Virus record (IMG/VR): IMGVR_UViG_3300017963_000242
Coordinates: 15,804 to 79,803 of that record
Origin: a virus
Reading direction: 5' to 3' (one strand)
Length of the DNA stretch: 64,000 bases
The translations under genes and the position numbers were made by a program. This document shows, piece after piece, positions 19,786 through 60,422 of the stretch (positions are counted from its first letter, which is position 1; every line of letters starts with the position of its first letter). The notes under the pieces are model-generated. The model did not search any database. It saw only the letters and a list, made by a program, of their open reading frames with translations, and was not told the DNA's origin.

Positions 19786-20531
19786 CTGCCTGCCAACTCC
19801 ACGCGAATGTAAGACCTCGACGGTACACCTGCCAGCAAGTCGAAAATCGAACCGATGTCCAGAGCCACCGCGCCGTCTCGCTTGGCTGCATTGCAGTAGC
19901 ACTTTCCATTTGGCCCAGCACCGACTAACACCACGTCACCCGGTCCTACGTCCAGTTCTCGCAATATTCGGCTATGCGCGTTTGGATAGTGCTGCTCGCT
20001 TGGCTGGCCCATCTGCGCCTCTTGAGGTACTCTGATCCAGCGCACCTCTTCTATGAGCAAGTCGTTCTTGAATATGTCTCGCACGTCCCGGCACGTGATG
20101 AGCGTTACCGATGACAATGCGCGTAGCAGGCTATACAGCAAGCCTTCCGAGTAGAGCCACCTGTGAACGCCACAATGGCAAGTATCGCCCCGCGCCAGCC
20201 CTTCCACCATCGCTAGATGATGCATCAGCTTGTAGAATTTGTTCCGGCTTTGCTGCTCGGTGCTTGGCAGTCCCAGCACATCAGCCCCCTGGCAAGCCGT
20301 GATTAGCTCGGCGCGTAACCGGCTGATACCATCCCTGTCCGGCTTCATTGTTCCGTACCAGTATTTGAGCGACTGGTTCAGGTCTGGAAACGAGATATAC
20401 GATGGATAGCCTATCAGCCGCGCCTCTCCATCGCCCAATCGAATGAGCGAAAATGGTTGACGTTCCTCTATTGCCTGTGCAATCTTGGCGTATACGCCTT
20501 GTGTATCGAGATGCGTCATCGCTGTATCCAT
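19782..20531 (-). CDS. GT-D-fold-like glycosyltransferase (paralog 2)
   Basis: FSLIRLGDGEARL, GAGPNGK, ALDIGS. Confidence 0.7.
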   Translation of the reverse strand: MDTAMTHLDTQGVYAKIAQAIEERQPFSLIRLGDGEARLIGYPSYISFPDLNQSLKYWYGTMKPDRDGISRLRAELITACQGADVLGLPSTEQQSRNKFYKLMHHLAMVEGLARGDTCHCGVHRWLYSEGLLYSLLRALSSVTLITCRDVRDIFKNDLLIEEVRWIRVPQEAQMGQPSEQHYPNAHSRILRELDVGPGDVVLVGAGPNGKCYCNAAKRDGAVALDIGSIFDLLAGVPSRSYIRVELAGR

Positions 20532-20564
20532 TTGGGATAATTTGGGATAATGTACGGCTGTACG
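20530..20564 (+). repeat. Dispersed 34-35 bp repeat, copy 1
   Basis: ATTTGGGATAATTTGGGATAATGTACGGCTGTACG. Confidence 0.9.
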
Positions 20565-34346: not shown

Positions 34347-34352
34347 GCCTTT

Positions 34353-35006
34353 CTACTCTCCTAGCCACAAGTCGGCGCAGTTTAGCTTTCCACGTTGCTT
34401 ATAATTCATAGACCAAAAATGTGGGCAGTTTGGATGGAATTTTCCAGGATTCGCCATTGCCACACGAATGGGGACGTTGCCTCGCGCAATCCAGCCTTGG
34501 CAGATAGGACACACGGCAGTTCTTGGTTCTAGCCTCGCTGTCCCCTCTTGTAGCCCGTTCATCTGAACAAAGTCCTGCTGTGCCTGAGTGCGCCCGTCGC
34601 CCTCTACCATCTGTGCGATCTGCACATCCTTCCACGCTGCCCGTTTCTCGTACCATCCCTCTAGCCGCTTTGCATACGTGTACCTGTTCGCCGTTGGTGT
34701 CTCTTGTCGGATGTGCGCGATTGCGATAGCCAGGTCATAGTTGTATGTGTTGACGATGGATTCCGCGTGCCACCGCGATTTTTCATTTAGCTTGGATAGG
34801 ATAGGCCCCTCTCGCACCCCGCCCACGCGATTGCACCCAGCCCGACGCGCCTGAATATTCAACTCATCATTGTACGCCGCACGCATATCCCGCAACAACG
34901 ACCCGCGTATGCTCTCGACATCGAATGCATCATATCGCGCCGCCAGGTGAACCAGCTTGCCCACGTCGCTCAAGTCGCCAACCGCTGCGCGCCAGTCTCT
35001 AGCCAT
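34353..35006 (-). CDS. MuF-like minor head morphogenesis protein
   Basis: VCPIC...HPNCPH motif; downstream of the portal. Confidence 0.65.
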   Translation of the reverse strand: MARDWRAAVGDLSDVGKLVHLAARYDAFDVESIRGSLLRDMRAAYNDELNIQARRAGCNRVGGVREGPILSKLNEKSRWHAESIVNTYNYDLAIAIAHIRQETPTANRYTYAKRLEGWYEKRAAWKDVQIAQMVEGDGRTQAQQDFVQMNGLQEGTARLEPRTAVCPICQGWIARGNVPIRVAMANPGKFHPNCPHFWSMNYKQRGKLNCADLWLGE

Positions 35007-35205
35007 CGTCGTCCTCTACCATTGCTTCTATCAGTGTCGCCAATACATCCTCGGCAGGCGCTCCATCGTCAAGCGCATCCTCAATCGCTTTGCCAAATCC
35101 AGGCCCAGCGTCCACCTCGTTCAACACGAACCAACGCGCCTTGTGCGCTTCTGTCATTGCGCCTAGTAGATAGGATATGCTGCGTCTTGCGTCCAGAGTT
35201 TTCAC
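34999..35205 (-). CDS. Small acidic hypothetical protein
   Basis: 68 aa, coupled on both sides. Confidence 0.5.
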   Translation of the reverse strand: MKTLDARRSISYLLGAMTEAHKARWFVLNEVDAGPGFGKAIEDALDDGAPAEDVLATLIEAMVEDDDG

Positions 35206-35690
35206 GCTGTCACCTCCAAGCTGCCCGACTTTGGCGTCATCCTTGCACCGAGCACGGTCTGAGCAAACGAGTCAGACCCGACCAGATAACCGCGCAACTG
35301 CCCGCCGACCTTGAGCGGCATGTGCCATTGCTGGCTGCGCTCGACCGGCAAGACTGGATTTTGTCTCAGCGTCTTGATTGCGCTCCGCACAGCCTTGTAC
35401 CCTGTGCGCTGGCCTGCTCGCTCCCAAACGTGACCTGGAATCTTACCAAGCGTCTTGCCGTGTGTTCCTTTCGGAGGGCCATGCCAGCCCTTACCTGGGC
35501 CTTTCGCTTGAACCGTCAGTTCATCTTGAGCAACCGTCTCTTGCCACTCGCTATCAGGAATGGCTTTCAGTCGCACCATTGCGTCACCGAACGAACGCAG
35601 CCCCATCTCCGCTACGTTTTTCTTGATGACCCTTCCCAATCGCTCGCGCTGCTTTTTATCCTGCTCAGTCCGCTGCTTACGTGTCGGCAT
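35202..35690 (-). CDS. Hypothetical protein with the KGPGKGWHGPP motif and a basic C-terminal domain
   Basis: 162 aa; H.WER...R pattern reminiscent of RelE/BECR-type RNases. Confidence 0.6.
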   Translation of the reverse strand: MPTRKQRTEQDKKQRERLGRVIKKNVAEMGLRSFGDAMVRLKAIPDSEWQETVAQDELTVQAKGPGKGWHGPPKGTHGKTLGKIPGHVWERAGQRTGYKAVRSAIKTLRQNPVLPVERSQQWHMPLKVGGQLRGYLVGSDSFAQTVLGARMTPKSGSLEVTA

Positions 35691-35898
35691 TCTGGCTGCC
35701 TTCAGCTAGCTCAAATTGAATATCGCGATCTCCTTGAAACGAATCGCGATGATCGTTGTCGCCTTTCCATATTTCTATCGGAATACCCTCTGGAAAAGCT
35801 GCGCATTTTCTTTCCGAACCATCGGTCAAATGCTTACACGTTGAGCACGTCGGACTGTAGATAGGCGTTTCAAATTCCTTGTCAATAGTAAAGGTCAT
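35677..35898 (-). CDS. Small Cys-rich protein of a type found downstream of phage MuF-toxin genes
   Basis: CSTCKH...CAAFPEGIPIEIWKG..DH....GD..IQFE. Confidence 0.7.
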   Translation of the reverse strand: MTFTIDKEFETPIYSPTCSTCKHLTDGSERKCAAFPEGIPIEIWKGDNDHRDSFQGDRDIQFELAEGSQNADT

Positions 35899-38192
35899 TC
35901 AATCACCTCATACGTTAATCCTAGCCCCGGATGATTTTTTGTAAGACGCTCCCATACTTCATGATTATGCAGCATATTAGCCGCCGACGTTGTCGTCTTT
36001 TTATCAAAGATTCTCGCCATAAAGTGCCCTCGAACCTGATCGTCAACAATATCTACCTTGGGCTTTATGTCTTTCCAGGTAGGTGTTTTCTCAGACCTAG
36101 ACATAATATATGTTTTTCCTGTGCTTCCAGCCGCACGAATCGACATTAGTTTTCCATCGGTCAATAGCCTAATATCCGACTCTGAAAAAGAACGCCCGGT
36201 TGGATGGTTATGAGTTAGCACCTTTCCAGACATCTGCGCCACTTCTTTGTCTGTAAACGAAACGGACGAAGCTCCGCCACTTTTTGCAAGCAACTCTTTT
36301 CCTGTTTCTGGATCAAACAGTCCAGCGTGCTCAGTTGGTGAACTTCGGATATATCCCTCTGCGCGCTGAATAGCTTCTTCTGCTATTGGCGACAGCCCGC
36401 CGCTGCCCCCTTTCCCTGCCCCATGTGTCCCTCCCTTGCTTGGCCCCCACCATCCCCGACCCGGCCCCTTGCCGGACTGCGCGACGATGTAACCCACGCC
36501 CTCGACGGTTGGGTCATAGGTTTTTCGACAGTCCGGGTTAGCGCATCGCAGCAGTGGGCCGTGACCTTCATATCTCTCAGCTTTGACAAACCCGCACAAC
36601 GGACACGTGCTGTCCACGATAACCGGCTTGTGCGAACCGATGAACAGAGACGCGATATAATCCTCGTTGGCCCTTGCCCGCTCTGTTTCTTCGTCCGGCT
36701 CTTCCGACGGTGGCTCTACAATCTCCGGCTCTGTCGGCTGCTCCGGCTCATCCGCCCCCGGCTGTTCAACCGGCGCTTCTGGCATGGCAGGTGCTTCCGG
36801 TTCATCGTCCTCCATATCCTCTGGAATGTCCGGCGGGAAACCGACAACCGCGCGCTGCTCTTTTTTAGTGAACGGCGTTGCGCCTTCTGCATCGGCAAAC
36901 TGTTTCATTGCCGTCGCCTTGCGCATCGAAATCGTCGCAGCCTGCTCTTCGTCCGGTGGTATCAGCGGCGGCCAGTGTCGGTTGCCTTCATCGTCGGCCT
37001 TGCCAATCTTATAGCCGTCTGCTGGCTCTGGCAGAACGCCGTACCAGATAAGCCGGTCGCTGAACGGTCTTAGAATGCGCGGCTCTACATAGGTGTTTTG
37101 TCGCCGAGCAATCACGCCCGACCATCGCCGTGTATCCTCTTGGCTGGACGCTAGTTCGCCCGCCGCAGAACCAAACAGTACGTGCATCGGAATTCTCGTG
37201 ATAGCAGCGATGTGTTTCATAAACGCATTGAACAACCCAGTCGGGTCCCACACGTCCGATCCGCCCAACTCAGCTACGTCCATCCCCGGCGCAAACAGGA
37301 ATCGCGCCAGGTCGTGAACGTATGCCTCTAACTGGTCTTTGAACCCGTCTACCACCTTCGCATCACCCAGGTCAAAGTCCCATCCCTCACGAGGCGATAG
37401 CACCGCGCCCTTGCGCTGATTCAACCAAGCTGATTCTGCCGACCCGCCAAGCGTCTTGTAGAGCATATCTATCAACGTGTCGTATGGCCGCTTGAGCCAG
37501 GGCCGACCGTAGACTTCGCTATCCGTGCGAAACTCGGCTATGTGTAACATCCGGGTATAGTGGACGCGCTCGCGGCTATCTTCGCCTACCTGGACATCGT
37601 AGTTCAGCGGATAACCACATCGCTTGGAGGATGGGTCATCGTCTACATCGCCTATCTTTGCCTGTCCTTCGTTCAGCGGTCGCAACCACAAAAGCCCTTC
37701 CGGTCCCTTGACGCTGCCCTTCTCAACCGGCTTAGACAAGTCGGCGTTACCCGCTAGGCCAAACATCAGCGCGCCATAGTTGCCTATCCCTGATGCTGCA
37801 TCGGCTCGCCGCAGTACGTCCCAAATGTAATGACGCTCGACTAGCTCGTTCCACGCACTGACGAACTCGGTATCCTCTTCGTCGTTCTCTGTGACTGCTG
37901 GTGGCTGGCCCCATGAGTCATCAGCGCGAACATCGATGATCTGACCGGCCAAGCCGCCCCTCTCGTATAGCCATAGATAGGAGCCGAAATCCAGTTCCTC
38001 GCTGTAGCCCAAGACGGTTGAGAACCTGCGCGCTCCCTCGTGCGTGCTTGCCCCGCCCATCACCCTGGACCGCCTGGACGGGTCAAATGCCGATGCTTGC
38101 GGCATCAGTCGTTGGCGGTTGGCGGATAGCTGTACCATCCGCAAGAACCGCATCGCACCCGCCGCTTGTTCGTCTGTGAATCTCTCGCTCAT
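35895..38192 (-). CDS. Portal protein (DUF1073-like) with C-terminal Zn-ribbon and JAB/MPN-like extension
   Basis: Follows TerL; YERGGLA..IID, RVHYTR, IP...LFG...GELAS..D; C-terminal E...THNHP...FSESDI. Confidence 0.85.
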   Translation of the reverse strand: MSERFTDEQAAGAMRFLRMVQLSANRQRLMPQASAFDPSRRSRVMGGASTHEGARRFSTVLGYSEELDFGSYLWLYERGGLAGQIIDVRADDSWGQPPAVTENDEEDTEFVSAWNELVERHYIWDVLRRADAASGIGNYGALMFGLAGNADLSKPVEKGSVKGPEGLLWLRPLNEGQAKIGDVDDDPSSKRCGYPLNYDVQVGEDSRERVHYTRMLHIAEFRTDSEVYGRPWLKRPYDTLIDMLYKTLGGSAESAWLNQRKGAVLSPREGWDFDLGDAKVVDGFKDQLEAYVHDLARFLFAPGMDVAELGGSDVWDPTGLFNAFMKHIAAITRIPMHVLFGSAAGELASSQEDTRRWSGVIARRQNTYVEPRILRPFSDRLIWYGVLPEPADGYKIGKADDEGNRHWPPLIPPDEEQAATISMRKATAMKQFADAEGATPFTKKEQRAVVGFPPDIPEDMEDDEPEAPAMPEAPVEQPGADEPEQPTEPEIVEPPSEEPDEETERARANEDYIASLFIGSHKPVIVDSTCPLCGFVKAERYEGHGPLLRCANPDCRKTYDPTVEGVGYIVAQSGKGPGRGWWGPSKGGTHGAGKGGSGGLSPIAEEAIQRAEGYIRSSPTEHAGLFDPETGKELLAKSGGASSVSFTDKEVAQMSGKVLTHNHPTGRSFSESDIRLLTDGKLMSIRAAGSTGKTYIMSRSEKTPTWKDIKPKVDIVDDQVRGHFMARIFDKKTTTSAANMLHNHEVWERLTKNHPGLGLTYEVIE

Positions 38193-41770: not shown

Positions 41771-42253
41771 TTATTGGCTCTCAATATACTTTTTAGCTGG
41801 GAGCAATAGCGGGCCACCCCCGATCAAAATGATAGCTTCGCTCACCGTCACGGTCAGCAATGACAACCAGAACAGATCGATCTCAAGCGCCCATAGCATC
41901 ACCGCAACCGCCGCCCCTGTCGTCGCCGCATATACGAACAGTGGAACGGCGATCCACTTTCTTTGCAAGGCTCGGTAGATGGTCCAGGCGAGCAGTCCAC
42001 CAGCCATATCAGTCAGCGGCATCCATACCAGTTCCCACGGTCCGACAAAGGGGCTGGTCAAGTTTGCGATCAACGTCCCGATGCCAATACCCAAGCACAA
42101 GAACGGATCAAACAACACGAATACCTTGAGCGCCTCGCTCGCTCTGAACTGGATCGGCCCAAACGAGAGCGGCGAGATGCCCACGGTGAGCACCACATAC
42201 AACGCCGCCACGATTGCAATCAAAACCACTCTTTTCGTCGTCAGTTTCATCAT
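41771..42253 (-). CDS. queT: QueT-family queuosine-precursor transporter (ECF S component)
   Basis: AALYVVLT...PLSFGPIQFRASEAL...G.LIANL.SP; five TM-like segments. Confidence 0.85.
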   Translation of the reverse strand: MMKLTTKRVVLIAIVAALYVVLTVGISPLSFGPIQFRASEALKVFVLFDPFLCLGIGIGTLIANLTSPFVGPWELVWMPLTDMAGGLLAWTIYRALQRKWIAVPLFVYAATTGAAVAVMLWALEIDLFWLSLLTVTVSEAIILIGGGPLLLPAKKYIESQ

Positions 42254-42299
42254 AACTCCTGTCTTTGTTGCGCGGGTGACTGCGACCGCGCCGATTTTG

Positions 42300-43484
42300 T
42301 TAAGCCGGGTTGTCGGAACCGGCATAAAGCTCGTTCACCTTCCACCCTACATTGCCCAGCGAAATAGACAGAGCGATGTAGGCGGGATTGACACGAGTGT
42401 CAATCCCGTATGCTGGCAAGTCCTTCCGCGTCCCATCGGGTAACACCGCGCCCCCCACTTGCGCGATTTTGCTTAGATAGTTATTGTCAAAACTTACCAC
42501 ATCGTCACCTAGCGCCGCCATGTGTGCAAGCTGTGCCTTCCAGCTTCCGCCCAGCAGATGAACACGCCGCCCTTTGAACGCCTCTGTAGGCAAAGGTGTA
42601 CCGCCGTGGGAGGTAGGCACAGAGTAGCCCAGCACATAGCGATCTGGTATTTGATCAAGCACGTCCACTTTCGGGATCACAATCACGTTCTCAGCGTACT
42701 GCTCAAGCTCCATCGCCCAATCAAGCACCTGGGGCAATTCGCAGAACTCGATACCGACTTCGTCACACTGTGACTTGCTCATATAATCGCGCACGGTAGC
42801 GTACTTGGGCCGTCCCTCTCGGCAAGCTGCCAAATGCTTACCGTGGTCGTATTTCTCGTAATCGCAATCAACAAACATAAGGCCGTGACTGCCCATTATG
42901 TTCATATTTGGACAAAATGCCTTTCCTGATTGTAGCCCATAGCCGAACCCGGCCATAGCCGCCAAGCAACACGACGCCGGAAAAGTGGCAGTATAAATCG
43001 CATCAATCGGTAGCTGGCGCGGATTCGGTTTGGCGCTCTTCGGTACGCCTAACAAATCTCCCGGCTCATCCCACCCCACCAACTCCCCCTCTTCGAACCC
43101 CCAGTCGAGCAGGTCGGACATCTCGAACGACGACGCCAACTCATCCCAGTCCCACTGGCCCGTCGTGCCCTTGTGCAAGTACACCACCAACTTTTGCCGC
43201 TCTTGCTCCGTCAGCGCCCGCGACGACACGCGCACGTCTACCTCGTAATCCGGGCCAAACTGCGGCAGCACGCTCCACACGAGTTTTCTCTGATGCCCAT
43301 CATACACTTCGTTAGTCGGGCCTATGGCGATGGTTTGAATCTGGCCGAACTCAGCCAGCGACTCGCCCAGCCGCTCGGCCTCACGTTTGTTGATCTCACG
43401 CGGGTTGTGCTCCCACGGAACAAGATCACGTAGCTTGCGGCGCTCATTCGTCCAAGTTATCGGTTCACTGTGCAAGTCGCCCAT
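42300..43484 (-). CDS. ParB-like N-domain fused to a TGT/DpdA-like (DUF6610-like) domain
   Basis: LVPWEHNPR...SL.EFG...DGHQR; C-terminal ATVRD, IVIPK, LGYSVPT, VHLLGGS, VVSFD. Confidence 0.7.
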   Translation of the reverse strand: MGDLHSEPITWTNERRKLRDLVPWEHNPREINKREAERLGESLAEFGQIQTIAIGPTNEVYDGHQRKLVWSVLPQFGPDYEVDVRVSSRALTEQERQKLVVYLHKGTTGQWDWDELASSFEMSDLLDWGFEEGELVGWDEPGDLLGVPKSAKPNPRQLPIDAIYTATFPASCCLAAMAGFGYGLQSGKAFCPNMNIMGSHGLMFVDCDYEKYDHGKHLAACREGRPKYATVRDYMSKSQCDEVGIEFCELPQVLDWAMELEQYAENVIVIPKVDVLDQIPDRYVLGYSVPTSHGGTPLPTEAFKGRRVHLLGGSWKAQLAHMAALGDDVVSFDNNYLSKIAQVGGAVLPDGTRKDLPAYGIDTRVNPAYIALSISLGNVGWKVNELYAGSDNPA

Positions 43485-43500
43485 ACTCTACCTTTCCAAC

Positions 43501-43534
43501 ACAAAACGCGGCGAACCAAACATCTCGCCGCGTT
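43501..43534 (-). terminator. Hairpin plus T-tract directly upstream of the first late gene
   Basis: AACGCGGCGA...TCGCCGCGTT TTGT. Confidence 0.55.
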
Positions 43535-43816
43535 ACTTACTAATGTAGAAAAACCAGGCTGGTCGCCTGGCTGAATGTCGTCCCGATGCTGTTGTTATAG
43601 CATCGTCCATTTGTAGTCCTAAATCGGGGCGTGGACAAGACGGGGGGGAGCCTTATCCACAACCCCATGAACAAGCGCATTTGCGCTTTTCACCAAAGAC
43701 CGCGCCGCCGTTGTCTACTCACTCATCCCGATTACGACGACGCGGCCCTAAGGAGAACACAGAACCGAAAGACTGTTGCCCAAGCAGTAGAAAGGAAGGT
43801 TCTGTATCACATTCTC

Positions 43817-43845
43817 ATTATACTCGATTCCCGGCAGGATGTCAA
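43817..43845 (-). promoter_or_regulatory. Leftward sigma70 promoter (morphogenesis arm)
   Basis: Perfect TTGACA-17-TATAAT. Confidence 0.85.
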
Positions 43846-43884
43846 GCTATATCCCAAACAAATCCCAATCCAGACTGGTCATAT

Positions 43885-43938
43885 CCCAACCTTAAATTTC
43901 CAAAAAGACTTGACAACTTCCAGAAAAGGTGCTATAAT
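43885..43938 (+). promoter_or_regulatory. Rightward sigma70 promoter with upstream CCCAACCTTAAATTT box
   Basis: TTGACA 43910, TATAAT 43933, 17-bp spacer, extended TG. Confidence 0.85.
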
Positions 43939-43978
43939 ACTTATGAGGTTAAGGAACCCGACACACAAGGAGGCCCAA

Positions 43979-44368
43979 ATGAAGACCTACAGCAAGCGGT
44001 ATCTTGAGAGCCTAGATGTTCGATTTGACCGAGTTCCTAATCTGAACGAAGTCGAAGTCTCTTGGAAAGAGCGCGGATATAGACAGGCTTTGCGGGTCTG
44101 CGCAATGAACAGCGACAAATTCTGCATTGCAAGACCTGGCCTTGGTGGAACGTTTCGGCTCTCTTATGACTGGGTATTCCAGACCCTTCCACTCGTTGGA
44201 ACTGGACCGAAGACAATCAAGGCGCACCTGCTCGACAGCAGGCACACCTGCTACCGCTATACTCACCATGGCGATGAACTGATGACGAACCTGTTAACCT
44301 CGATGCTAGACGTGGCACGCAAGATGCTGCTGAAAGAGGTTGCCCAACACGAAAGGAAATCCAGATGA
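43979..44368 (+). CDS. Hypothetical early protein
   Basis: ATG with RBS AAGGAGG after the promoter. Confidence 0.65.
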   Translation: MKTYSKRYLESLDVRFDRVPNLNEVEVSWKERGYRQALRVCAMNSDKFCIARPGLGGTFRLSYDWVFQTLPLVGTGPKTIKAHLLDSRHTCYRYTHHGDELMTNLLTSMLDVARKMLLKEVAQHERKSR

Positions 44369-47496: not shown

Positions 47497-49053
47497 ATAT
47501 CACAGAAGCCCAAGTGTCCCAAGTTGAGAAGCGCGGTGATGCATATGCTATCCCACCTATTATAGTTTGCAAGAGGCATCTGCATCTTGCCCTAACCGTG
47601 CTCTATGATCTGATGCAGTACGGCGAGTCGTTGACGCAAGTCGCCCCACTGAAACAGCGGCTCGACGTTCCACCCAAGTGGACTCGGCGCGATATAGAGC
47701 AGTACATTGAACTGAACAGTGGTCGCATCGTCATCGACGAATGGCTCAGTCCGGTCGGATGGACTGGACACATCGAGCCTGTTGAAACCCAACCTTAAAT
47801 TTTAGCAAAAGGCTTGACAAAACCTTGCAAATCTGCTATAATATTTGTGAGGTTGAAAACGCCCACACAAGGAGATGCAGATGCTAAAGTTGGTTCAGAG
47901 ACAGAAGATGGATTTTCTCAGAGTTTGGAACCTTGGATATAGACTGTTCGATCAGTTCCGTGGGGATAGCCTAAGTGGCATTGACGACTTGTCAATGCTC
48001 AGTGTCTATGATACCGAAACCGGACAGTACCACCCGTTTAACCGCGAAGACTTGTCCGCTGCGGTCAACGCCGCCAACAAAAAGACCCCGATGCGCCATC
48101 AGCACACATACCGGCTCTATGCAAGATTCCACAGAACGTTCACCGGTAAGCTCCGGTTCGACGGTGTTGAGATCATCGACGCCTTGGCTTTGACCAGCCC
48201 CAGTGGTTGCGCTGTCAGGCTCGGCAAGGAAGAGGTGAACCTGTAATGGCATACTTGGTGATTTCATCTAGGCGACCCGGAACCCCCAGGCCCCCGGCCA
48301 AGGTCCACGTCAGGGGCAACCAAGCCTCTTTCACCACCCCGTACTACAAGGGGTGGGCCGTTGACGAATTCAAAAACTCCGTTCCCTGGCAAGCGCGACG
48401 CTGGGATGAAGGCACTAAAACGTGGTCGTGTAAAGTCGAGTATCTCGAACAGATGACCGAATTCGCTGACTGCTTTGGAGATGTCAAGATTATCAAGGAT
48501 GCGGCACAATGACAACCCGCATTGTTTGCAAGCATCACCTAGACAGCGTTGTCGCCTCGTTCAAGCCAGAAGAGGACTTGGCCCAAGGTATCCAGCTTTA
48601 TCAGTTGAGCGGCTGGCCCTATCTTCTCAAGCCGTGTGGATGCCCGGACCAACAAGACCCGCCTGACTGCTACGAACCACTGACGCCCGAACAGGTACGC
48701 CAGTGGATGGAGGCGCATTGATGACGACAACCTGCATTTATCGCTATTCAGTTCACGGGCAGCGTGATCAATACCGACCTGATGAACCGGTAGCGCTATT
48801 GCACCAATGGTGTGGGCAGTTTTGGCGCAAGACTTCAGAGCCAGTCTGCCAAAACTGCCCACACCAACGGCCATTTGACGAATACGACGAAGATGGTTTA
48901 CTTCGTCTGATTTGCCGTATCGTGCGAGATTCTATTCAGGCAGCGCAACATGGTATGCCGGAACAGGCACGCGTCGCGGTAGCGTGGTCTGTGATAGGCG
49001 GTATGGATGTAGATGTCGCCACGCGCGCGATAAGGAAGGCTATAAATGATTGA
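47493..49053 (+). CDS. Hypothetical early genes (47493-47798, 47875-48246, 48246-48512, 48509-48721, 48721-49053)
   Basis: Coupled ORFs; 48246-48512 has a HARP-like RRWDEGTKTW motif. Confidence 0.55.
47788..47842 (+). promoter_or_regulatory. sigma70 promoter with upstream CCCAACCTTAAATTT box
   Basis: TTGACA 47814, TATAAT 47837. Confidence 0.85.
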
Positions 49054-49429
49054 ACTTTGGATTGATGGACAGCCACCGCGCAAAAGCAACAACCGGCGCA
49101 TCGTCCGACGCGGACGCAATGGGCCGCCGATGTCCATCAAGAGCCAAGGCGCTCTGGACTGGATACGCGCAGCAAACATGCAAATACCAGTCGATGCGCG
49201 ACAATGTCTAGGCAGTCTAGAGCGTCCTCTCAGAATTAGAATGGACATCTATTATAAGTCACGTCGGCCTGATTTGTCTGGAGAACTTGTGCTAGACCTA
49301 CTCCAGACAGTCGGCGTTATCTCCGATGATCGCTACGTGTACGCCTGGGAGCTTTACAAGCATTTTGATAAAGAACGACCGGGCATAGCGATACGGGTTG
49401 AATACTTGAACAATGATGAGGCAGAATGA
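49046..49429 (+). CDS. rusA: RusA-like Holliday junction resolvase
   Basis: G.PP.KSN, RPDLS...LDLLQ..GVISDDR.V. Confidence 0.75.
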   Translation: MIELWIDGQPPRKSNNRRIVRRGRNGPPMSIKSQGALDWIRAANMQIPVDARQCLGSLERPLRIRMDIYYKSRRPDLSGELVLDLLQTVGVISDDRYVYAWELYKHFDKERPGIAIRVEYLNNDEAE

Positions 49430-50598: not shown

Positions 50599-51405
50599 AT
50601 GAACGAATTCATTTGTCGTATCTGTGGCAAAGCCGGTGAGGGTCAGTCATTCGAAGCGTGGGTCAAGCCCACATTTATGGACTGGGACAAACTCGTGCCT
50701 GGAGAGATCATTTGTTCTGATTGCCTATTCTGGTTTGAGGAGCGTAGCGAGGAATTGGCGCGGCGCGTCGGCAAAGAAAAGCCGCAGCGAATGCGGAATT
50801 ACAGCCACTTTATTGTGGCTGGCGAGTGGATACCACTTTCCAAAGGAGACAAGACGCGAATGCAGGCGCTGCTGTTTGCGTCTCCTTTTCCAGAGCTTGC
50901 CGCCGTCGCGGTGAGCGGTCAGAAGCATATCGCGTTTAGAGCGCAACGCAACCCGCCGGGCGCGGCAGGTGGCTGGGTACAGGTAGAAGAGCAGGCGCTT
51001 TATCTCGCACCGGATAAATTGCGCGCTGTGTTGGCGACAGTCGAAGCGCTGTATGCCGGATTCAGCAAGTCGGAAATCGAGACCGGCGACTATGCCGGTT
51101 ATCGCGTTTTAAAGTTCGGGTTGGAAGCATGGCAATCGCTAGAAGCGGTTGTCTCACCCCAACGGGGTAGTTTGTTATTTCAATTGGCGCTGTTTTTGGC
51201 GCAGAAAGGTACAAGCGGCGATGGACGAACTCAAGCAGCAGGCCATAGAACTGCTGGCGATTCTATGGCGCGGGATGCCGGCGGACTACAAAAGCCGGTA
51301 TCGGATGAACATTTGGGATCAGTTTCGAGACCAGATCAGGAGCGCGGCCTACACAAGCAGCCTGGACAGGTGTATCAGCTCACTTTGCCAGAAATTGAAC
51401 TGTGA
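50599..51405 (+). CDS. csf1: Type IV CRISPR-associated large subunit Csf1 (Cas8-like)
   Basis: CRICG...TF.DWD...ICSDC, RNYSH, SGQKH; first gene of the operon. Confidence 0.75.
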   Translation: MNEFICRICGKAGEGQSFEAWVKPTFMDWDKLVPGEIICSDCLFWFEERSEELARRVGKEKPQRMRNYSHFIVAGEWIPLSKGDKTRMQALLFASPFPELAAVAVSGQKHIAFRAQRNPPGAAGGWVQVEEQALYLAPDKLRAVLATVEALYAGFSKSEIETGDYAGYRVLKFGLEAWQSLEAVVSPQRGSLLFQLALFLAQKGTSGDGRTQAAGHRTAGDSMARDAGGLQKPVSDEHLGSVSRPDQERGLHKQPGQVYQLTLPEIEL

Positions 51406-51598
51406 TATTGGCCGAAACGCCGATGACCGGGAGCGCGCCGAGGAGATCTTGAACAGCGCGGATGATCGCGCAATACTCAAGTTGCTGCGCGATGAAACAA
51501 CCGTGCTCGTTCTGCACGTGCGAGTCGCCAACCAGGCGCGGCGCAAGGAGTGGGAAGAGGAGCACCTGGACGAATGGACAAAGGAGACAGCAGTGTGA
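51221..51598 (+). CDS. cas11: Type IV-B small subunit Cas11 (Csf4)
   Basis: ~125 aa all-helical protein between csf1 and csf2. Confidence 0.7.
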   Translation: MDELKQQAIELLAILWRGMPADYKSRYRMNIWDQFRDQIRSAAYTSSLDRCISSLCQKLNCDIGRNADDRERAEEILNSADDRAILKLLRDETTVLVLHVRVANQARRKEWEEEHLDEWTKETAV

Positions 51599-52569
51599 AG
51601 ACTTTTGTATTCGAAGGAACGATGATGGCGTTAACGAGTATCTCTCATATCGGCGATACGTTCGGCGTGAATGCGCGCTTGCGGCGCGAAAAGGTGGTTC
51701 AGCCGGACGGTTCAGTAGAAGAGATCCCGATCATCAGCGGAAACGCGCTGCGCGGCATCCTGCGCGACCGGGGAATGCTGCATATGGTGCGACAGCTTGG
51801 CTATGGCGAACCGGGCGAGGATGGCGTGCCACAAGGTATGTCGTTGGCCGCGTTTTACTTTCTCTTTTCCGGCGGCGCGCTGACCAAAGACGCCGGGCGC
51901 GGGCTGGACATTGACCGGGCGCGCCAGTGGCGCGAGTTGATCCCGCTTGTGGCGCTGTTTGGCGGGGCGATGGGAAATCAAATCATGCCGGGCAAGCTCA
52001 AAGTCGGCAAGGCGATCCCGATCTGCCAGGAGACGGCGCACATCTTGCCGGAGCGGTACGCTCAAGGCGAGATCAAGTCGGTGTGGGACTTTTGCCAAGA
52101 GGAGGCATACACGCGGCGGGACGATGAGAAAAACGAGAATCTACGCCAACTGATCGCGCCTGCTGCTCGCGCGCTCTTGGAGGCCAAAGCCAGCGTAGAA
52201 CGGCAAAAGAGCGGCACGAAAGAGGATGTGGTGGCCGAGACCGGCCAAAAGCAGCAGATGCGCTATTACGTCGAGACGCTGGCGGCGGGGACCCCATTGT
52301 TTTGGGACTTGACGCTAGACGACGCGACAGAGATCGAGTTTGAGGCGTTCGCGGTGACGTTGGCCGAGTTTGGCCGCCTGCCCTACATCGGCGGTAAAAG
52401 CGGCGTGGGGCTGGGCAAGGTCTCGATCTCATTCGACCAGTGGATCGAGATCAACCCACGCCTCGCGCCGGATGGGCGCGAGGTCGGCCTGCCGCTTGGA
52501 TCACAGTATATGGATCACATACGGGAGCGCGGGACAGAAATCCGCGACTTGATCGATGGCCTATCGTGA
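51595..52569 (+). CDS. csf2: Type IV Cas7-like backbone Csf2
   Basis: ALTSISH, IPIISGNALRGILRD, LFSGGAL, LFGG, YTRRDD, QM.Y..E, IGGKSGVGLGKV Gly loop. Confidence 0.9.
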   Translation: MKTFVFEGTMMALTSISHIGDTFGVNARLRREKVVQPDGSVEEIPIISGNALRGILRDRGMLHMVRQLGYGEPGEDGVPQGMSLAAFYFLFSGGALTKDAGRGLDIDRARQWRELIPLVALFGGAMGNQIMPGKLKVGKAIPICQETAHILPERYAQGEIKSVWDFCQEEAYTRRDDEKNENLRQLIAPAARALLEAKASVERQKSGTKEDVVAETGQKQQMRYYVETLAAGTPLFWDLTLDDATEIEFEAFAVTLAEFGRLPYIGGKSGVGLGKVSISFDQWIEINPRLAPDGREVGLPLGSQYMDHIRERGTEIRDLIDGLS

Positions 52570-53245
52570 CAGATACGACCTAGAACCGCTGCGCGTGCGC
52601 GCCTGGCTGCGCAGCGGCGTAGTGGCGGATCGGCACTTGCCGCTAGATGGCATTCTGCTCTATCAGAATCACCGCGCCGCGCTGGGCGCGCTAGAGATGA
52701 CAGTGCCGGGCGAGTACACCAACAATGCGCCGGTGGCAACGCTACCGCTGGGCATCCTGAACCCCGGGCGTCGCCACTGGTACTACCAGTGCTCGTGGGC
52801 ACAGTGGTCACACCAGGTCGAGGGTCAAGATCACTGGAATAAGCGATTCAGATCGCAGTTGGTCGATCTGGTTGAGTTCGGCAAGCGGCGGGGTAAGGTG
52901 ATCGTGGAGCAAGGTGAATATCGAGCGTATCATATGCCGATCTTTTACCGCACCGCGCTGTGGGTCGAATGGTACTGCGTAGGCGACAAAAAAGAGATCG
53001 AATATTTTTTGTCCACCGTCACGCACCTGGGCAAAAAGGCCGTGCAGGGCTGGGGCCGCGTGGCGCGTTGGCAGATCGAGCCGTGGCCGTGGGACTGGTC
53101 CGTGTGGCGCGCGGATGGTCGCTTGATGCGCGGCATACCACCAGAGGACCTAGACGGCCACCAGTTTGATTTGAGCGTCGGTAATTATGGCATACGGCCT
53201 AGCTACTGGAAGCGTAGCAATCAGATGGTGCTGGTGCTGCCATGA
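52556..53245 (+). CDS. csf3: Type IV Cas5-like Csf3
   Basis: PLRVRA.L, LDGIL, LPL, VGD, LGKKAVQGWGRV, RPSYW. Confidence 0.85.
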   Translation: MAYRDRYDLEPLRVRAWLRSGVVADRHLPLDGILLYQNHRAALGALEMTVPGEYTNNAPVATLPLGILNPGRRHWYYQCSWAQWSHQVEGQDHWNKRFRSQLVDLVEFGKRRGKVIVEQGEYRAYHMPIFYRTALWVEWYCVGDKKEIEYFLSTVTHLGKKAVQGWGRVARWQIEPWPWDWSVWRADGRLMRGIPPEDLDGHQFDLSVGNYGIRPSYWKRSNQMVLVLP

Positions 53246-53988
53246 TGCCGGACGAATTACGAGAGCGGTTTGAATTGTATGGCCGATTGGACCAGCACCG
53301 GCGGCGTGTCAAGCAGGCGCGGGATATAGTAGCTCGCGCCTTAGATACGTGCGGTAACTGGTACGTCGCATTTAGCGGCGGAAAAGACAGCACGTGTGTA
53401 TTGACATTGGTACGTGAGCAAGCGCCCCGCACAGTTGCCGCGTGCTCTGTTCCAGAGTTTACATTGCCAGAGACAGCCGCCTATCTGGAGAACGTGCCGA
53501 ATCTGGAGCGAGTGGCGTCAGGTTCGGATCACGAAACAGGGTGGGCAGTGAATTGGGCAGGGCCAGAGGATGTGCCAGCGCATATTCGATGGATTGGAGC
53601 ACGCGGGAGCACACTGCCGAACTATGGCCTGGCTTTGTCGAATGTGTTCCTTGGCTTGCGAGAGGAAGAGAGCAGCGCTCGCAGCGCTCACCTGCGCTCA
53701 CAGGGCGTGCTGTTTTTCTCGAAAAAGGGACAAGGCTGGCACTGCTCACCACTGGCAAAGTGGACGGTCGAGGATGTGTGGGCGTACATTTTGGGGGAGG
53801 GATTGGACTATAACCACGCATACGACAGAATGTCCGAGATCGGTGTGCCACTGGAACAGCAGCGGATCGGGCCGTTTGCGGTTGATCGCGTGTTAGGCTA
53901 TGGGCCTCTTGCGATCTTAAAGCGGGGCTGGCCGGATGTGTTTAATGCATATGCGGCGCTGTATCCAGAGGCGCGCCAGTTCGTATGA
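53242..53988 (+). CDS. cysH: CysH/PAPS-reductase-like protein of the type IV-B locus
   Basis: AFSGGKDS PP-loop, GLREEES..R, PLAKW...DVWAYI. Confidence 0.85.
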   Translation: MMPDELRERFELYGRLDQHRRRVKQARDIVARALDTCGNWYVAFSGGKDSTCVLTLVREQAPRTVAACSVPEFTLPETAAYLENVPNLERVASGSDHETGWAVNWAGPEDVPAHIRWIGARGSTLPNYGLALSNVFLGLREEESSARSAHLRSQGVLFFSKKGQGWHCSPLAKWTVEDVWAYILGEGLDYNHAYDRMSEIGVPLEQQRIGPFAVDRVLGYGPLAILKRGWPDVFNAYAALYPEARQFV

Positions 53989-54034: not shown

Positions 54035-54250
54035 ATGAAACGATATAATACGCCATGCGGTCAAACAAAAGTGTGCACTAACTGCGACGGCACAGGCGAG
54101 TGCCCAGAGTGTAGCGGCACAGGCGAGTGCCCGATATGTGATGGTGATGGCTGTGATGATTGTGGCCATTCTGGTTCGTGTGACTATTGCGCTGACAACC
54201 CTGGGCGCTGCAACGAGTGTAATGGCACTGGACGTATTCCGCTAAGTTGA
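54035..54250 (+). CDS. DnaJ-type cysteine-rich zinc-finger protein
   Basis: Multiple CxxCxGxG repeats. Confidence 0.7.
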   Translation: MKRYNTPCGQTKVCTNCDGTGECPECSGTGECPICDGDGCDDCGHSGSCDYCADNPGRCNECNGTGRIPLS

Positions 54251-54270: not shown

Positions 54271-54305
54271 ATTTGGGATAACTTGGGATAATGTACGGCT
54301 GTACG
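54271..54305 (+). repeat. Dispersed 34-35 bp repeat, copy 3
   Basis: ATTTGGGATAACTTGGGATAATGTACGGCTGTACG. Confidence 0.9.
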
Positions 54306-54315
54306 AGTGCATTGT

Positions 54316-54371
54316 CCCAACCTTAAATTTTATCCGAAAGCCTGACAATTCACCTGCCAATGTGCTATAAT
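54316..54371 (+). promoter_or_regulatory. sigma70 promoter with upstream CCCAACCTTAAATTT box
   Basis: CTGACA 54342, TG-TATAAT 54366. Confidence 0.75.
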
Positions 54372-56448: not shown

Positions 56449-57237
56449 ATGCCACTAATTGAACCAATGCTAACCGGAACACGAGATAGGATACAAATCG
56501 CCATTGACCGGCTACGTAACTTTGAGCCGCCAGATGGCTACTACTTGGCGTTCAGTGGTGGCAAAGACAGCGTGACCATTCTGCGACTGGCAGAGATGGC
56601 AGGTGTCAAATTTGATGCGCATTATCACGTTACCACAGTGGACCCGCCAGAGCTTGTAAAGTTTATCAAGTCAGAACATCCAAGCGTGGAACGCCACCGG
56701 CCTGAGATGTCGATGTTTCGCTTGATTTTGTTCAAGCATTGGCCGCCCATGCGCAAACAGCGATATTGTTGTGAGCGACTGAAAGAGCACGGCGGCGACG
56801 GTCGAACAATTGTCCAGGGCGTTCGGTGGGCTGAGTCTCCAAGGCGCAAGACACAGCGTAAAATGGTTGAGATTTGTGGGCGGCGCGATATGAGAACTGT
56901 TAACCCGATTATCGACTGGTCGGATGCAGACGTGTGGGAATTCATTCACCAGGAACAAGTACCCTACTGCTCGCTCTACGATGAAGGGTTCAAGCGACTT
57001 GGCTGCGTTCTTTGTCCACTTGGCGGACATCCTGAGCTAGAGGCCGAACGGTGGCCGCAGATAGCCAAAGCGTACATAAGCACATTTGATAGGCTGCTTG
57101 ATGTACGTGCCGCGATTGGAAAGACGCAACGATTCCAAACCGGACAAGAGCTATTCGACTGGTGGATTGACCGTCGCCCCCACAAGCGACCGCCTGACGA
57201 ACAGATGACTTTCGACGAACTCGACTTGACAAATTGA
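56449..57237 (+). CDS. Second PAPS-reductase-family protein (Fe-S type)
   Basis: AFSGGKDS, TTVDPPE, RYCCERLKE, GVRWAES.RR, RLGCVLCP. Confidence 0.9.
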   Translation: MPLIEPMLTGTRDRIQIAIDRLRNFEPPDGYYLAFSGGKDSVTILRLAEMAGVKFDAHYHVTTVDPPELVKFIKSEHPSVERHRPEMSMFRLILFKHWPPMRKQRYCCERLKEHGGDGRTIVQGVRWAESPRRKTQRKMVEICGRRDMRTVNPIIDWSDADVWEFIHQEQVPYCSLYDEGFKRLGCVLCPLGGHPELEAERWPQIAKAYISTFDRLLDVRAAIGKTQRFQTGQELFDWWIDRRPHKRPPDEQMTFDELDLTN

Positions 57238-57729: not shown

Positions 57730-58005
57730 ATGTTAAGACGCAAATGCCCAAAATGTAGACGACGAAAACGGATCCACCCATTCCATTGCGAATGGTGCGA
57801 TGACTGCCAACTTTCCGCTACTGATGATATTATGCGGATGATTGGCTACACCGTTTCGTTTTGTCACAAAGACCTAATCGATGATGCCGAAGAGACCTGG
57901 CAGGCCGCTTGGGATTTGACAATGAATCTGCCGCATGACTATCCTGATTATTCTGCTCTATGTGACATTCTGAGCGACATTTGTCCCGTTCCGGGGGAGC
58001 AATGA
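57730..58005 (+). CDS. Hypothetical Zn-finger protein
   Basis: CPKC...C..C; RBS AAAGGA. Confidence 0.55.
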   Translation: MLRRKCPKCRRRKRIHPFHCEWCDDCQLSATDDIMRMIGYTVSFCHKDLIDDAEETWQAAWDLTMNLPHDYPDYSALCDILSDICPVPGEQ

Positions 58006-60422
58006 ACTACCAAGACTTTTTGGCAAGTAAGCAACAATACGGTGCTCAGTCTGGATTCAAGCCTGTGTTTATGTCTGAATCTCTGTACGATTTCCAGACA
58101 TACCTCGTTGACTGGGCTGTTCGACTTGGACGCGCTGCGATATTCGCGGACTGCGGGCTAGGCAAAGGCCAACCGATGAACGCGGGAGTTCTCACTCCTA
58201 CAGGTTGGCGCAGGATGGGCAACCTTGAGATAGGAGATTCGGTCATCGCCAGCAACGGACAATCCTATCCGGTCACGGGTATCTATCCGCGCGGAGAGCA
58301 GCTGACCTATACAATCCGCTTTTCTGATAACACATCCCTCACGGTCGATGCAGACCATTTGTGGTTCGTCAAGAGCTTTAACGATAAAGCGCGTGGTAGT
58401 CCGTGGCGCGTAATAGCGACAAAGGATCTGGTCAAAACCCCGCTCAAGTATGGCATTCACGGCCAGTCTAGAACGTGGCACATTCCGCTCGTTGAGCCAG
58501 TTCAGTTTGAACTTATCCAAGATGACTTTGTGATTGATCCTTATTTGATGGGACTTTTGCTTGGTGACGGCACCATCTCGGGGGGTGGCATACAGATCAG
58601 TACGCCAGACGAAGAGATCGTTGAGTCCGTACAGCGACTTATCCCAGAGACATATACCATCAAAAAGGTCAAGGGAAGCGACTACGATTACTCCATCACA
58701 AAGGGGCGCGGTTACAAGAACGAGTTATTGAACGAACTGAGACGGCTCAAGCTGTACGGTGCTCATTCGTATGAAAAGTTTATCCCCCGATGCTATCTTT
58801 TTGCATCGGTTAAAGACCGCCTATCCATTCTCCAAGGTCTAATGGACACGGACGGATATGCGGGTGAATCACCAGAATACTCCAGCTCGTCCCTATGTCT
58901 GGCACAAGGAGTAGTATTTCTGGTACAATCGCTTGGCGGCACGGCACGCATCGGCGTCAAGGAAAATCCAACCTACACATATAAAGGGCAAAAGCTCACT
59001 GGTCGAACGTCCTACCGTGTCACAATGACCTTGCCCGCTGGTATTAAATTGTTCCGCCTGGCACGGAAAGCCAATAATTATCACGCGGCGACTCGCGGTC
59101 TAGGTCGCTGGATTGACAGCATTGATGAAAACAATAGACAGCCAACTCAGTGCATCTCGGTCGCGTCGCCAGACGAAAGCTATGTAACCGAGCACTTTAT
59201 TGTCACTCACAACACGCCGATGCAGTTGACCTGGGCACAGAACATTGTGCAATACACAAACAAGCCGGTCCTGGTCCTCGCGCCCCTGGCGGTCACGGGC
59301 CAGACACTCGACGAGGCCACCAAGTTCGATATAGCCGCCCAGCGCGCCGACCCCGATTCCGATAGCGCCACAGCTATCATTGAAATCACGAATTATGAAA
59401 AGTTGCACCTGTTCGATCCTCGTCGATATGGCGGCATCGTATGCGACGAGAGCAGTATACTCAAAAACTTTAATGGAAAACGTCGCAAAGAAATCACCGA
59501 GTTTATGCGCACGCTGCCCTATCGCCTACTGTGTACGGCTACAGCAGCGCCGAATGACTGGGTAGAGTTAGGCACATCCAGCGAGGCCCTGGGCTACTTG
59601 GGTGAACGCGATATGAAAACGCGCTTCTTCTCACGCAAGGCGATCTATGCACGAGAGAATGCTGGTCGCAAGGAATGGAACCTTAGACTGTGGGCAGAGC
59701 AAGGTCCGTTTTGGCAATGGCTCTCTACCTGGGCTAGGACCGCCCGCAAGCCGTCAGACTTGGGCTTTGATGATAACGGATTCATTTTGCCACCGATTAA
59801 GGCCAACCACATCAAAGTGGATGCCGTTCTCCCCACGCCAGGAATGCTATTCGATGTACCCGCCGTCTCATTCCACGAGGAACGAGAGGCGATTCGCCGC
59901 ACAATCCAAGAACGGTGTGAAGCCGCTGCCCAAACCGTGGCCGACAACGGCGCAACATCTATGGTCTGGTGCAACCTGAACGACGAAGGCGACCTACTCG
60001 AAAAGCTGATCCCCGGATCCGTCCAAGTTGCCGGTCGGCACTCTGACGAGAAAAAAGAGGAAGCGGCGCGGTGGTTTGTCCACGGTACAGACGAACGGCG
60101 TGTTCTGATTAGCAAGCCGTCTATTTTTGGTTTCGGCCTGAACTTCCAGCACTGCCAACACATGACATATTTTCCGACTTGGAGCTACGAAAAATACTAT
60201 CAGGCCAGCCGCCGCCTGTGGCGGTTCGGACAAACCCAACCGGTCGAGATTGACTTGATCTATACAGATGGCGGGAAGCGAATGCTTGCCGGAATCGAGA
60301 GAAAGGAACAACGCGCAACTGAGATGTTCGAAAACCTTGTGCAGCACATGAACCACGCGCTGCACATCAAAGAAACCTATCAAACACAGAAAGTGAAGGT
60401 GCCTCAATGGATGAAAAAGTGA
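58002..60422 (+). CDS. SF2 (SNF2-like) helicase containing an intein
   Basis: ADCGLGK/T, ITNYE, CDESS, TAT, GFGLNFQ, RLWRFGQ. Confidence 0.9.
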   Translation: MNYQDFLASKQQYGAQSGFKPVFMSESLYDFQTYLVDWAVRLGRAAIFADCGLGKGQPMNAGVLTPTGWRRMGNLEIGDSVIASNGQSYPVTGIYPRGEQLTYTIRFSDNTSLTVDADHLWFVKSFNDKARGSPWRVIATKDLVKTPLKYGIHGQSRTWHIPLVEPVQFELIQDDFVIDPYLMGLLLGDGTISGGGIQISTPDEEIVESVQRLIPETYTIKKVKGSDYDYSITKGRGYKNELLNELRRLKLYGAHSYEKFIPRCYLFASVKDRLSILQGLMDTDGYAGESPEYSSSSLCLAQGVVFLVQSLGGTARIGVKENPTYTYKGQKLTGRTSYRVTMTLPAGIKLFRLARKANNYHAATRGLGRWIDSIDENNRQPTQCISVASPDESYVTEHFIVTHNTPMQLTWAQNIVQYTNKPVLVLAPLAVTGQTLDEATKFDIAAQRADPDSDSATAIIEITNYEKLHLFDPRRYGGIVCDESSILKNFNGKRRKEITEFMRTLPYRLLCTATAAPNDWVELGTSSEALGYLGERDMKTRFFSRKAIYARENAGRKEWNLRLWAEQGPFWQWLSTWARTARKPSDLGFDDNGFILPPIKANHIKVDAVLPTPGMLFDVPAVSFHEEREAIRRTIQERCEAAAQTVADNGATSMVWCNLNDEGDLLEKLIPGSVQVAGRHSDEKKEEAARWFVHGTDERRVLISKPSIFGFGLNFQHCQHMTYFPTWSYEKYYQASRRLWRFGQTQPVEIDLIYTDGGKRMLAGIERKEQRATEMFENLVQHMNHALHIKETYQTQKVKVPQWMKK
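58167..59213 (+). mobile_element. Class 3 intein with LAGLIDADG homing endonuclease (349 aa)
   Basis: Inserted in Walker A GK|T; GQPMNAGVLTPTGW, DHLW, LGDG, GLMDTDG, TQCISV, YVT...THN|T. Confidence 0.9.

Follow-up and report, generated by a model that had tools for sequence, protein, structure and literature searches.

Type IV-B CRISPR-Cas loci are defined by a csf1-cas11-csf2-csf3 gene set with a cysH-like neighbour and no array or Cas6, and have been described mainly on actinobacterial plasmids and sometimes in prophages (PMC7038947, PMC8175902). The IV-B complex of Mycobacterium sp. JS623 binds heterogeneous RNA (PMC7937560), virus-borne IV-B has been reported for viruses of Bathyarchaeia (PMC10848311, a paper that also refers to previous descriptions of type IV systems from several lytic phages), and in 2026 the function of IV-B was still called unclear (PMC13676074). 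Here we describe a IV-B cassette at 50599-53988 of a 64,000-nucleotide stretch of viral DNA (the window), corresponding to bases 15804-79803 of the IMG/VR record IMGVR_UViG_3300017963_000242, which is 79,803 bp long, classed as linear and 94% complete by CheckV. To our knowledge, IV-B is the one widespread CRISPR-Cas subtype that has no known function.

Virus-borne IV-B without an array has been published before; the cassette described here is a further member of the published kind and ordinary for its subtype. What it adds is its clade, which comprises hundreds of metagenomic relatives, many of them on phage contigs, and lies far from the actinobacterial plasmids studied so far. In this clade the large subunit Csf1 mostly carries a terminal peptide of the type that binds the bacterial sliding clamp, of which the present copy has a degenerate form. 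The peptide is a cheap and falsifiable clue: if the peptide binds the clamp protein DnaN, it would tell where in the cell IV-B acts and would point to a possible substrate of the CysH-like enzyme.

Identity of the cassette genes

Five genes make up the cassette, and their identities were checked by hidden Markov model (HMM), solved-structure or fold comparison:

50599-51405, + strand: csf1, type IV large subunit, 268 aa; PADLOC model Csf1_0_IV, E = 1.4e-20 over aa 6-203
51221-51598, + strand: cas11, small subunit, 125 aa, frame 2, helical-looking, with GAAAGG ahead of the ATG
51595-52569, + strand: csf2, Cas7 backbone, 324 aa; PADLOC model Csf2_0_IV, E = 8.3e-81
52556-53245, + strand: csf3, Cas5, 229 aa; PADLOC model Csf3_0_IV, E = 1.8e-51 over aa 8-229
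53242-53988, + strand: cysH-like gene (CasCysH) for a PP-loop enzyme, 248 aa; PF01507, E = 8e-11

All five are intact, co-oriented and coupled, with start/stop overlaps of 4 nt (cas11/csf2), 14 nt (csf2/csf3) and 4 nt (csf3/cysH), and cas11 overlaps the last 185 nt of csf1 in another frame. The tightly coupled csf1-cas11-csf2-csf3-cysH operon that a first-pass annotation had read from the sequence is therefore borne out by the PADLOC HMMs, including those run for Csf2 and Csf3, by matches to the solved IV-B complex (7JHY) and by the overlaps. Naming the cassette needed the CasTyper-derived PADLOC models, as NCBIfam and Pfam alone were insufficient and returned RAMP, Csf2 and Csf3 matches only below threshold, together with a PAPS_reduct match; csf3, for instance, matches TIGR03116 with E = 6.6e-16, which is below the NCBI curated cut-off.

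The small subunit was the one gene of the operon whose position had to be corrected. A cas11 gene is present as annotated, and it is the open reading frame (ORF) at 51221-51598 overlapping csf1, which matches Csf4/Cas11 of 7JHY with E = 6.4e-4 as a single sequence and with E = 3.8e-5 as a 20-sequence profile (positions 6-116 of 123). The 150-codon ORF at 51462-51914 (+) that was considered as cas11 lies inside csf2, has no family match, is rich in Arg, Ala and Gly and was rejected as spurious; across related loci it has weak similarity only, as expected from the nucleotide conservation of csf2.

The csf2 start is most likely the GTG at 51595, which overlaps the cas11 stop (GTGA), since AAGGAG stands ahead of it (the GTG follows by 8 nt) and the resulting 324 aa fit the homologues (323-326 aa). 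In a sequence search of the PDB, Csf2 matched IV-B 7JHY (9e-28), IV-C Cas7c (1.2e-16) and IV-A 8RC3 (2.6e-4), and by this search it is nearest to IV-B rather than to IV-A or IV-C. In the AlphaFold2 (AF2) model of Csf1, aa 1-203 form a confidently folded core, with a predicted local distance difference test (pLDDT) score of 85-98 up to aa 200, and its only significant PDB matches by Foldseek are the type IV-A chains 7xg1_A (7e-5) and 8rc3_G (1.1e-3), which are read as IV-A Csf1 subunits from the entry titles only. Csf1 also carries a four-Cys zinc ribbon, of which C6, C9, C39 and C42 are invariant or nearly invariant. The cassette is almost certainly an intact type IV-B CRISPR-Cas effector set without an array.

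Absence of an array and of helper genes

No CRISPR array was found in the whole 79,803-bp record using Tandem Repeats Finder and two k-mer scans, nor in the window using Rfam. By Pfam the record likewise holds no Cas6 (PF01881), Cas1 (PF01867) or Cas2 (PF09827), no Csf5-specific model having been run, and the Csf4/DinG model TIGR03117 is without a match. The first-pass annotation had reported no array, cas1, cas2, cas6 or dinG, and this holds on the full, 94%-complete record. The flanks of 27 related loci are also free of CRISPR arrays. Repeats at three of these loci (L011, L015 and L018) were considered as arrays and rejected, being palindromic with irregular spacing or present in just two copies; they are operator-like.

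These results bear on whether the complex could act in a guide-dependent way, using CRISPR RNAs (crRNAs) borrowed from the host or from a co-resident system for interference or silencing of mobile elements or host genes, much as type IV-A does in the manner of CRISPR interference. The set of Cas5, Cas7, Cas11 and large subunit is complete, hybrid assembly on the crRNAs of other systems was considered by Zhou et al. (PMC7937560), and a mini-array accompanies one IV-B locus of an archaeal virus (PMC10848311). Set against this, neither the contig nor any of the 27 related loci has an array, Cas6, helicase or nuclease for such a pathway, and the JS623 complex hardly took up the crRNAs that it was offered (PMC7937560), so that we regard borrowed guides as quite improbable here.

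Relatives, mobility and host

A search of the protein collection gave 910 homologues of Csf2, with identities of 68-90% for the best 120. The same cassette gene set is found on 21 IMG/VR contigs with flanks unlike those of the window, and the ten proteins that flank the cassette in the window have no homologues beside the cassette elsewhere, except for paralogous matches to 3'-phosphoadenosine 5'-phosphosulfate (PAPS) reductase and methyltransferase. Because its flanks are not common to the related loci, the cassette moves as a module. It belongs to a large phage-associated IV-B clade.

The architecture varies within this clade. Relatives carry inserts between csf3 and cysH that encode small helix-turn-helix (HTH) proteins (106-122 aa), sigma-like proteins (184-200 aa), a P-loop kinase-like protein (167 aa) or a double-HTH protein (184 aa). 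Three loci have the order csf2-cysH-csf3, one locus is without a nearby cysH, and in L011 the place of cysH is taken by a 513-aa gene. The loci with architecture variants are L003, L010 and L013; L006-L008; L005; L004; L011; and L016, L017 and L019.

A non-functional CRISPR-Cas remnant, hitch-hiking on the phage, would also lack an array and a nuclease and have no demonstrated function. Such decay is very hard to reconcile with five intact ORFs, a Csf2 that is 66-90% identical over hundreds of metagenomic relatives, an invariant catalytic PP-loop and a gene order that is kept across phages with unrelated flanks, and we consider it highly improbable.

Matches in a species-genome collection lie mainly on short contigs of metagenome-assembled genomes (MAGs) of Chloroflexota, and the phage host is probably a member of this phylum. 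GenBank phages gave no match at the DNA level, and at the protein level Skermania phage SPI1, a cultured actinophage, was the sole match among 50,697 records. In the SPI1 record (32609-36242; our locus L032), Orf40-44 are annotated as hypothetical only. By order and size they are a IV-B cassette, with Orf42 the Csf2 homologue (37% identity) and Orf44 the CysH-like protein (31%).

The CysH-like enzyme

The CysH-like protein has the PP-loop SGGKDS, and across 41 aligned homologues S-x-G-K-D-S, G138, R140, E143 and R147 are invariant, the latter four within a GLREEESSAR stretch. The same alignment has no invariant Cys, and the window protein has no catalytic Cys motif of the ECGLH type. Its model (pLDDT 96) is nearest to PAPS/adenosine 5'-phosphosulfate (APS) reductases, to the PAPS domain of flavin adenine dinucleotide synthase/flavin mononucleotide adenylyltransferase, and to TtuA. 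The protein is not a catalytic PAPS/APS reductase or a sulfate-assimilation enzyme, and has retained the fold and the PP-loop. Full-length identity to the IV-B CysH-like proteins encoded by Rhodococcus pRHL3 and by Skermania phage SPI1 is 30-31%, against only 25%, over part of the protein, to a second PAPS-reductase paralogue of the phage itself, which places the enzyme with the Cas-associated CysH-like group. This second gene, at 56449-57237 (+), is of a common phage type (phrog_424, 3.6e-42; PF01507, 4.8e-23). With an identity of only 25% between them, the two PP-loop enzymes of the phage are distinct; their genes lie 2.5 kb apart.

A near-invariant, co-diversifying PP-loop enzyme is left unexplained if the Csf filament is an RNA sponge or anti-CRISPR that captures host crRNAs, or other small RNAs, at an early stage of infection and thereby disarms RNA-guided host defences. 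The sponge is one of two putative functions put forward in the first-pass annotation, the other being that the complex would guide the CysH enzyme to nucleic acid. The sponge idea was also raised for the solved IV-B complex, which binds heterogeneous RNA (PMC7937560), and it would suit a cassette that has neither array nor Cas6 and sits in an early-arm transcription unit (see below). Pinilla-Redondo et al. judged so complex an anti-CRISPR unlikely (PMC7038947), and Zhou et al. cite their finding of a negative co-occurrence of IV-B with other CRISPR systems (PMC7937560). The sponge would also leave unexplained the clamp-type docking peptide described next, and on this evidence we consider it improbable.

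The Csf1 tail and its overlap with cas11

Beyond its folded core, Csf1 has an extension that is encoded over cas11:

51208-51405, + strand: Csf1 C-terminal tail, aa 204-268, encoded in another frame across the 5' half of cas11
51376-51402, + strand: terminal peptide QLTLPEIEL, at the position of Q-L-x-L-F in relatives, with P instead of F

The tail is predicted to be disordered, with AF2 pLDDT below 50 both at aa 206-232 and at aa 242-253 and near 50 from there to the C-terminus. Of 20 viral loci, 17 keep the csf1 frame free of stops along about 60 codons of cas11. A Q-[L]-x-[LM]-[F] motif stands in the C-terminal tail of 115 of 120 Csf1 homologues, 0-24 residues from the end where measured; its fifth position is F in 95 and P in 6, and its commonest forms are QLSLF (17) and QLDLF (13). 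The bacterial beta-clamp-binding consensus is the pentapeptide QL[SD]LF, which these commonest forms match.

The motif is well beyond chance expectation. An exhaustive profile search followed by clustering at 50% gave 114 Csf1 representatives of at least 200 aa, and 31 of them end in the motif, as against 0.6 expected from shuffled tails (maximum 4 in 500 shuffles), an enrichment of about 50-fold. It also recurs in unlike surroundings. In a second Csf1 lineage the tails, about 90 aa long, are unrelated, and their only invariant residues are one Gly and the terminal Q..LF; for two of its proteins, P0345 and P0371, scans of viral contigs found nothing. A third, divergent lineage ends in QL[GRS][FLI]xW or QLGLGL at the extreme C-terminus (loci L080, L085, L089, L103, L108, L109 and L098, and protein P0251). 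Its Csf1 proteins are about 32-39% identical to that of the window (47% for L098), and in four of the loci the csf1 stop precedes csf2 by more than 1 kb. The QLGLGL ending resembles, in sequence, the hexapeptide class of clamp-binding motifs. That unlike tails converge on one terminal peptide is the strongest argument for selection acting on the peptide itself.

Synonymous-site evidence comes from the overlap. In pairs among 15 divergent loci, positions with the same Cas11 residue use an identical codon at a frequency of 0.55 inside the overlap vs 0.33-0.35 outside it (Mann-Whitney p = 2.4e-6). The Cas11 residues that the motif region encodes, NS[LI]C, are not conserved in L017, where Csf1 is tail-less, and only L-C is kept in the likewise tail-less L014. 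The csf1 tail/cas11 region is dual-coding in the clade, and both gene callers and annotators will get this arrangement wrong. Should the peptide have the function proposed here, the csf1/cas11 overlap would exemplify a functional linear motif that arose through overprinting.

Proposed clamp docking and function

Docking of the Csf1 tail on DnaN was modelled in silico with a relative that carries QLDLF (L025) and the DnaN of the same MAG, using author-built alignments. The score was 0.52, against 0.00 for the best control, and was classed as 'weak support'; runs agreed in at least 45% of contacts, with a partner pLDDT of at least 38. Of 80 solved complexes, 58 attained the mark for docking, as did 2 of 110 mismatched pairs, and scores of 0.60 or lower comprised only 7 of the 80 solved complexes along with both passing mismatches. 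In the literature that we searched, no report connects the sliding clamp with Csf1 or with type IV systems.

We consider it reasonably probable that the Csf1 tail docks on the beta clamp in the clade, and doubtful, if worth entertaining, that the QLTLP copy of the window does so. A link to the replisome is thus plausible where the clade is concerned, and uncertain in the case of this copy.

The mechanism that we propose has three steps. By homology to the solved JS623 complex, the Csf proteins would assemble a Cas7/Cas11 filament on RNA; the disordered Csf1 tail, in this clade, would dock the particle on the host DnaN at replicating DNA; and the CysH-like enzyme would then use ATP to modify a substrate, either nucleic acid or protein, by adenylation or in some other way. 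We give a probability of about 0.4 to this whole chain, that is, to an early-transcribed ribonucleoprotein, clamp-tethered in the clade, that would deliver a PP-loop adenylating enzyme. A sharper version, in which IV-B particles ride sliding clamps at forks and deliver the CasCysH ATP-pyrophosphatase to new DNA or to fork RNA, is speculative and we think it unlikely. Were it true, a CRISPR-derived machine would have been repurposed for replication-coupled nucleic-acid modification or replisome control, and not for guided immunity.

Several points weigh against the clamp-tethered chain. The RNA binding, expression timing and enzymatic activity of the cassette are inferred from sequence and homology, and the host was deduced solely from short contigs binned into MAGs. 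The window motif is QLTLP, not QLTLF, and the aromatic anchor is absent; P-variants recur among other Csf1 tails (QLAMPAF, QLSLPKF and QLTLPESW). The window and its nearest relative, L001 (QLALPEVEL), differ by 18 synonymous cas11 changes per 62 codons inside and outside the overlap alike, so that this pair shows no extra constraint there and either is uninformative or has a relaxed tail. Part of what is conserved in the tail (G-[VL]-H-x-Q-P-G) simply follows from the RSAAYT motif of Cas11, which is universally conserved. Csf1 is tail-less in L013, L014 and L017 (3 of the 20 viral loci), in L026, and in Rhodococcus pRHL3 and Skermania phage SPI1, and no clamp motif was found in the other subunits of L014, L017, L026, SPI1 and pRHL3. 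As such tail-less cassettes exist without a compensating motif, clamp docking is not essential to IV-B function, and the Csf1 tail is an add-on of this clade and not a core IV-B feature. Finally, the docking result is weak, and since solved DnaN-peptide complexes exist, the pass may reflect memorised structures.

The missing F anchor, the lack of extra constraint relative to L001, the tail-less cassettes and the weak docking would all be expected if the IV-B ribonucleoprotein and CasCysH act on nucleic acid or another substrate with no replisome link, the end of the tail binding some other partner or being tolerated overprinting, and QLTLP being a motif in decay. This account does not explain why, in at least three Csf1 lineages whose linkers are unrelated, disordered tails should have the exact clamp consensus at their extreme C-terminus, why it should be enriched about 50-fold over shuffles, or why synonymous-site conservation should be raised in the overlap across the clade, and we hold it to be somewhat unlikely.

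Genome context and transcription

Positions 1-43000 of the window, which may hold the virion genes, are transcribed leftward, and the rightward arm starts from about 43900. The promoter-like sites (consensus matches only) and repeat elements are as follows:

43817-43845, - strand: sigma-70-like consensus promoter
43910-43938, + strand: sigma-70-like consensus promoter
47814-47842, + strand: sigma-70-like consensus promoter, TTGACA-17-TATAAT with TG, 12/12 consensus, likely start of the cassette unit
54342-54371, + strand: sigma-70-like consensus promoter
54272-54305, + strand: 34-bp element in which the repeats TTGGGATAA and TGTACG each occur twice; the promoter-like site at 54342-54371 follows after about 37 bp
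20531-20564, + strand; 32397-32430, - strand; and G000 5080-5097: further copies of the 34-bp element

Back-to-back perfect sigma-70 consensus promoters (12/12 each) at 43817-43938 mark the point of divergence between the leftward and rightward arms. The + promoter of this pair falls inside a nominal ORF at 43631-44368, and the 5' part of that ORF is therefore doubtful. From the promoter at 47814-47842 the rightward genes are tightly packed up to 54250, and no terminator-like site stands out before that position. There is no non-coding space upstream of csf1, as the preceding gene stops 18 nt before it. The downstream boundary of the cassette unit is marked at 54272-54371 by the repeat element and then the promoter-like site.

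A RusA-like gene at 49046-49429 is a weak match (PHROG 4.7e-5, Pfam 5.6e-4). The region downstream of the cassette holds the second PAPS-reductase-like gene together with genes for a LAGLIDADG-containing helicase, a DNA methyltransferase, a replication initiator and a DnaB-like helicase. The first-pass annotation had placed the cassette in the early arm between rusA and the replication genes, with which the promoter at 47814-47842, the packed genes and the downstream replication genes agree; the cassette fits a predicted early or replication-side transcription unit.

Two intervals that had been put forward as candidate guide RNAs are not supported as such. That at 54271-54320 coincides with the 34-bp TTGGGATAA element, which looks like the operator of a phage regulator and not like a guide RNA, and that at 43485-43812 is probably the leader of the leftward operon, lying downstream of the promoter-like site at 43845-43817.

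Other features of the region were observed in passing. The last gene in the cassette unit, at 54035-54250 (+), is a 71-aa ORF with repeated CxxCxGxG units and a 27-bp tandem repeat at 54073-54130; it is DnaJ-type zinc-finger-like and has no family match. The gene at 57981-60422 (+) encodes an 813-aa helicase or primase-like protein with LAGLIDADG_3 at aa 281-331 (PF14528, 5e-10), between an N-terminal P-loop region and Helicase_C, which judging by this arrangement may be an intein or a homing-endonuclease insertion. At 41771-43484 (-), a QueT transporter (PF06177, 4.4e-26) adjoins a ParB-like N-terminus fused to DUF6610 (5e-35). This module is about 7 kb from the cassette, on the opposite strand and not interleaved with the IV-B genes. 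It was considered as a 7-deazaguanine module with a preQ1 riboswitch, and an Rfam scan of the window at gathering thresholds returned no match and no riboswitch.

Comparison with known systems

Bacterial DnaN clients with a terminal QL[SD]LF or QLxLxL include Pol II, Pol IV, UmuC, Hda and MutS, and the Csf1 proteins of the clade are like them in having a short Q-L-x-L-F at the end of a disordered terminus. The window peptide differs in having P at position 5, is only partly like the Hda-type QLSLPL, and its binding is putative; moreover, the Csf1 peptide is encoded in an overlapping frame and shares part of its conservation with Cas11.

Type IV-A systems, which consist of a Csf complex and CasDinG (7XG1, 8RC3), have the Csf1 core fold in common with the phage set as well as homologous Cas7 and Cas5. 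Unlike IV-A, the phage set is without DinG, Cas6 and an array and has Cas11 and a CysH-like gene, and the IV-A match of its Csf2 (2.6e-4) is far weaker than the IV-B match (9e-28).

Among virus-borne systems, the Fuxiviridae of Bathyarchaeia (PMC10848311) likewise carry a Csf1-Cas11-Csf2-Csf3-CysH-like set and no adaptation module, but the fuxivirus has a two-repeat mini-array whereas this contig has none. Orf40-44 of Skermania phage SPI1 (KR011061) have the same gene order and are also virus-borne with no adaptation module; there, the csf1/cas11 overlap is only 14 nt and Csf1 is without a clamp-like end.

Also among the closest known systems are the IV-B loci of actinobacterial megaplasmids, namely that of the JS623 Csf complex (7JHY, PMC7937560) and that of pRHL3 of Rhodococcus jostii RHA1, which have the same set of csf1, cas11, csf2, csf3 and a neighbouring cysH-like gene and likewise lack an array, Cas6, helicase and adaptation genes. 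The JS623 chains in 7JHY are the best matches for the phage Csf2 and Cas11, and the pRHL3 CysH-like protein is 30% identical over the full length to that of the phage, whereas Csf2 of the known actinobacterial plasmid IV-B systems is only about 35-37% identical to the phage protein. Those systems are borne on actinobacterial plasmids, while the cassette described here is on a tailed phage, probably of Chloroflexota; and where Csf1 of pRHL3 and SPI1 ends without a tail or QLxLF, the phage Csf1 has a 65-aa extension overprinted on cas11.

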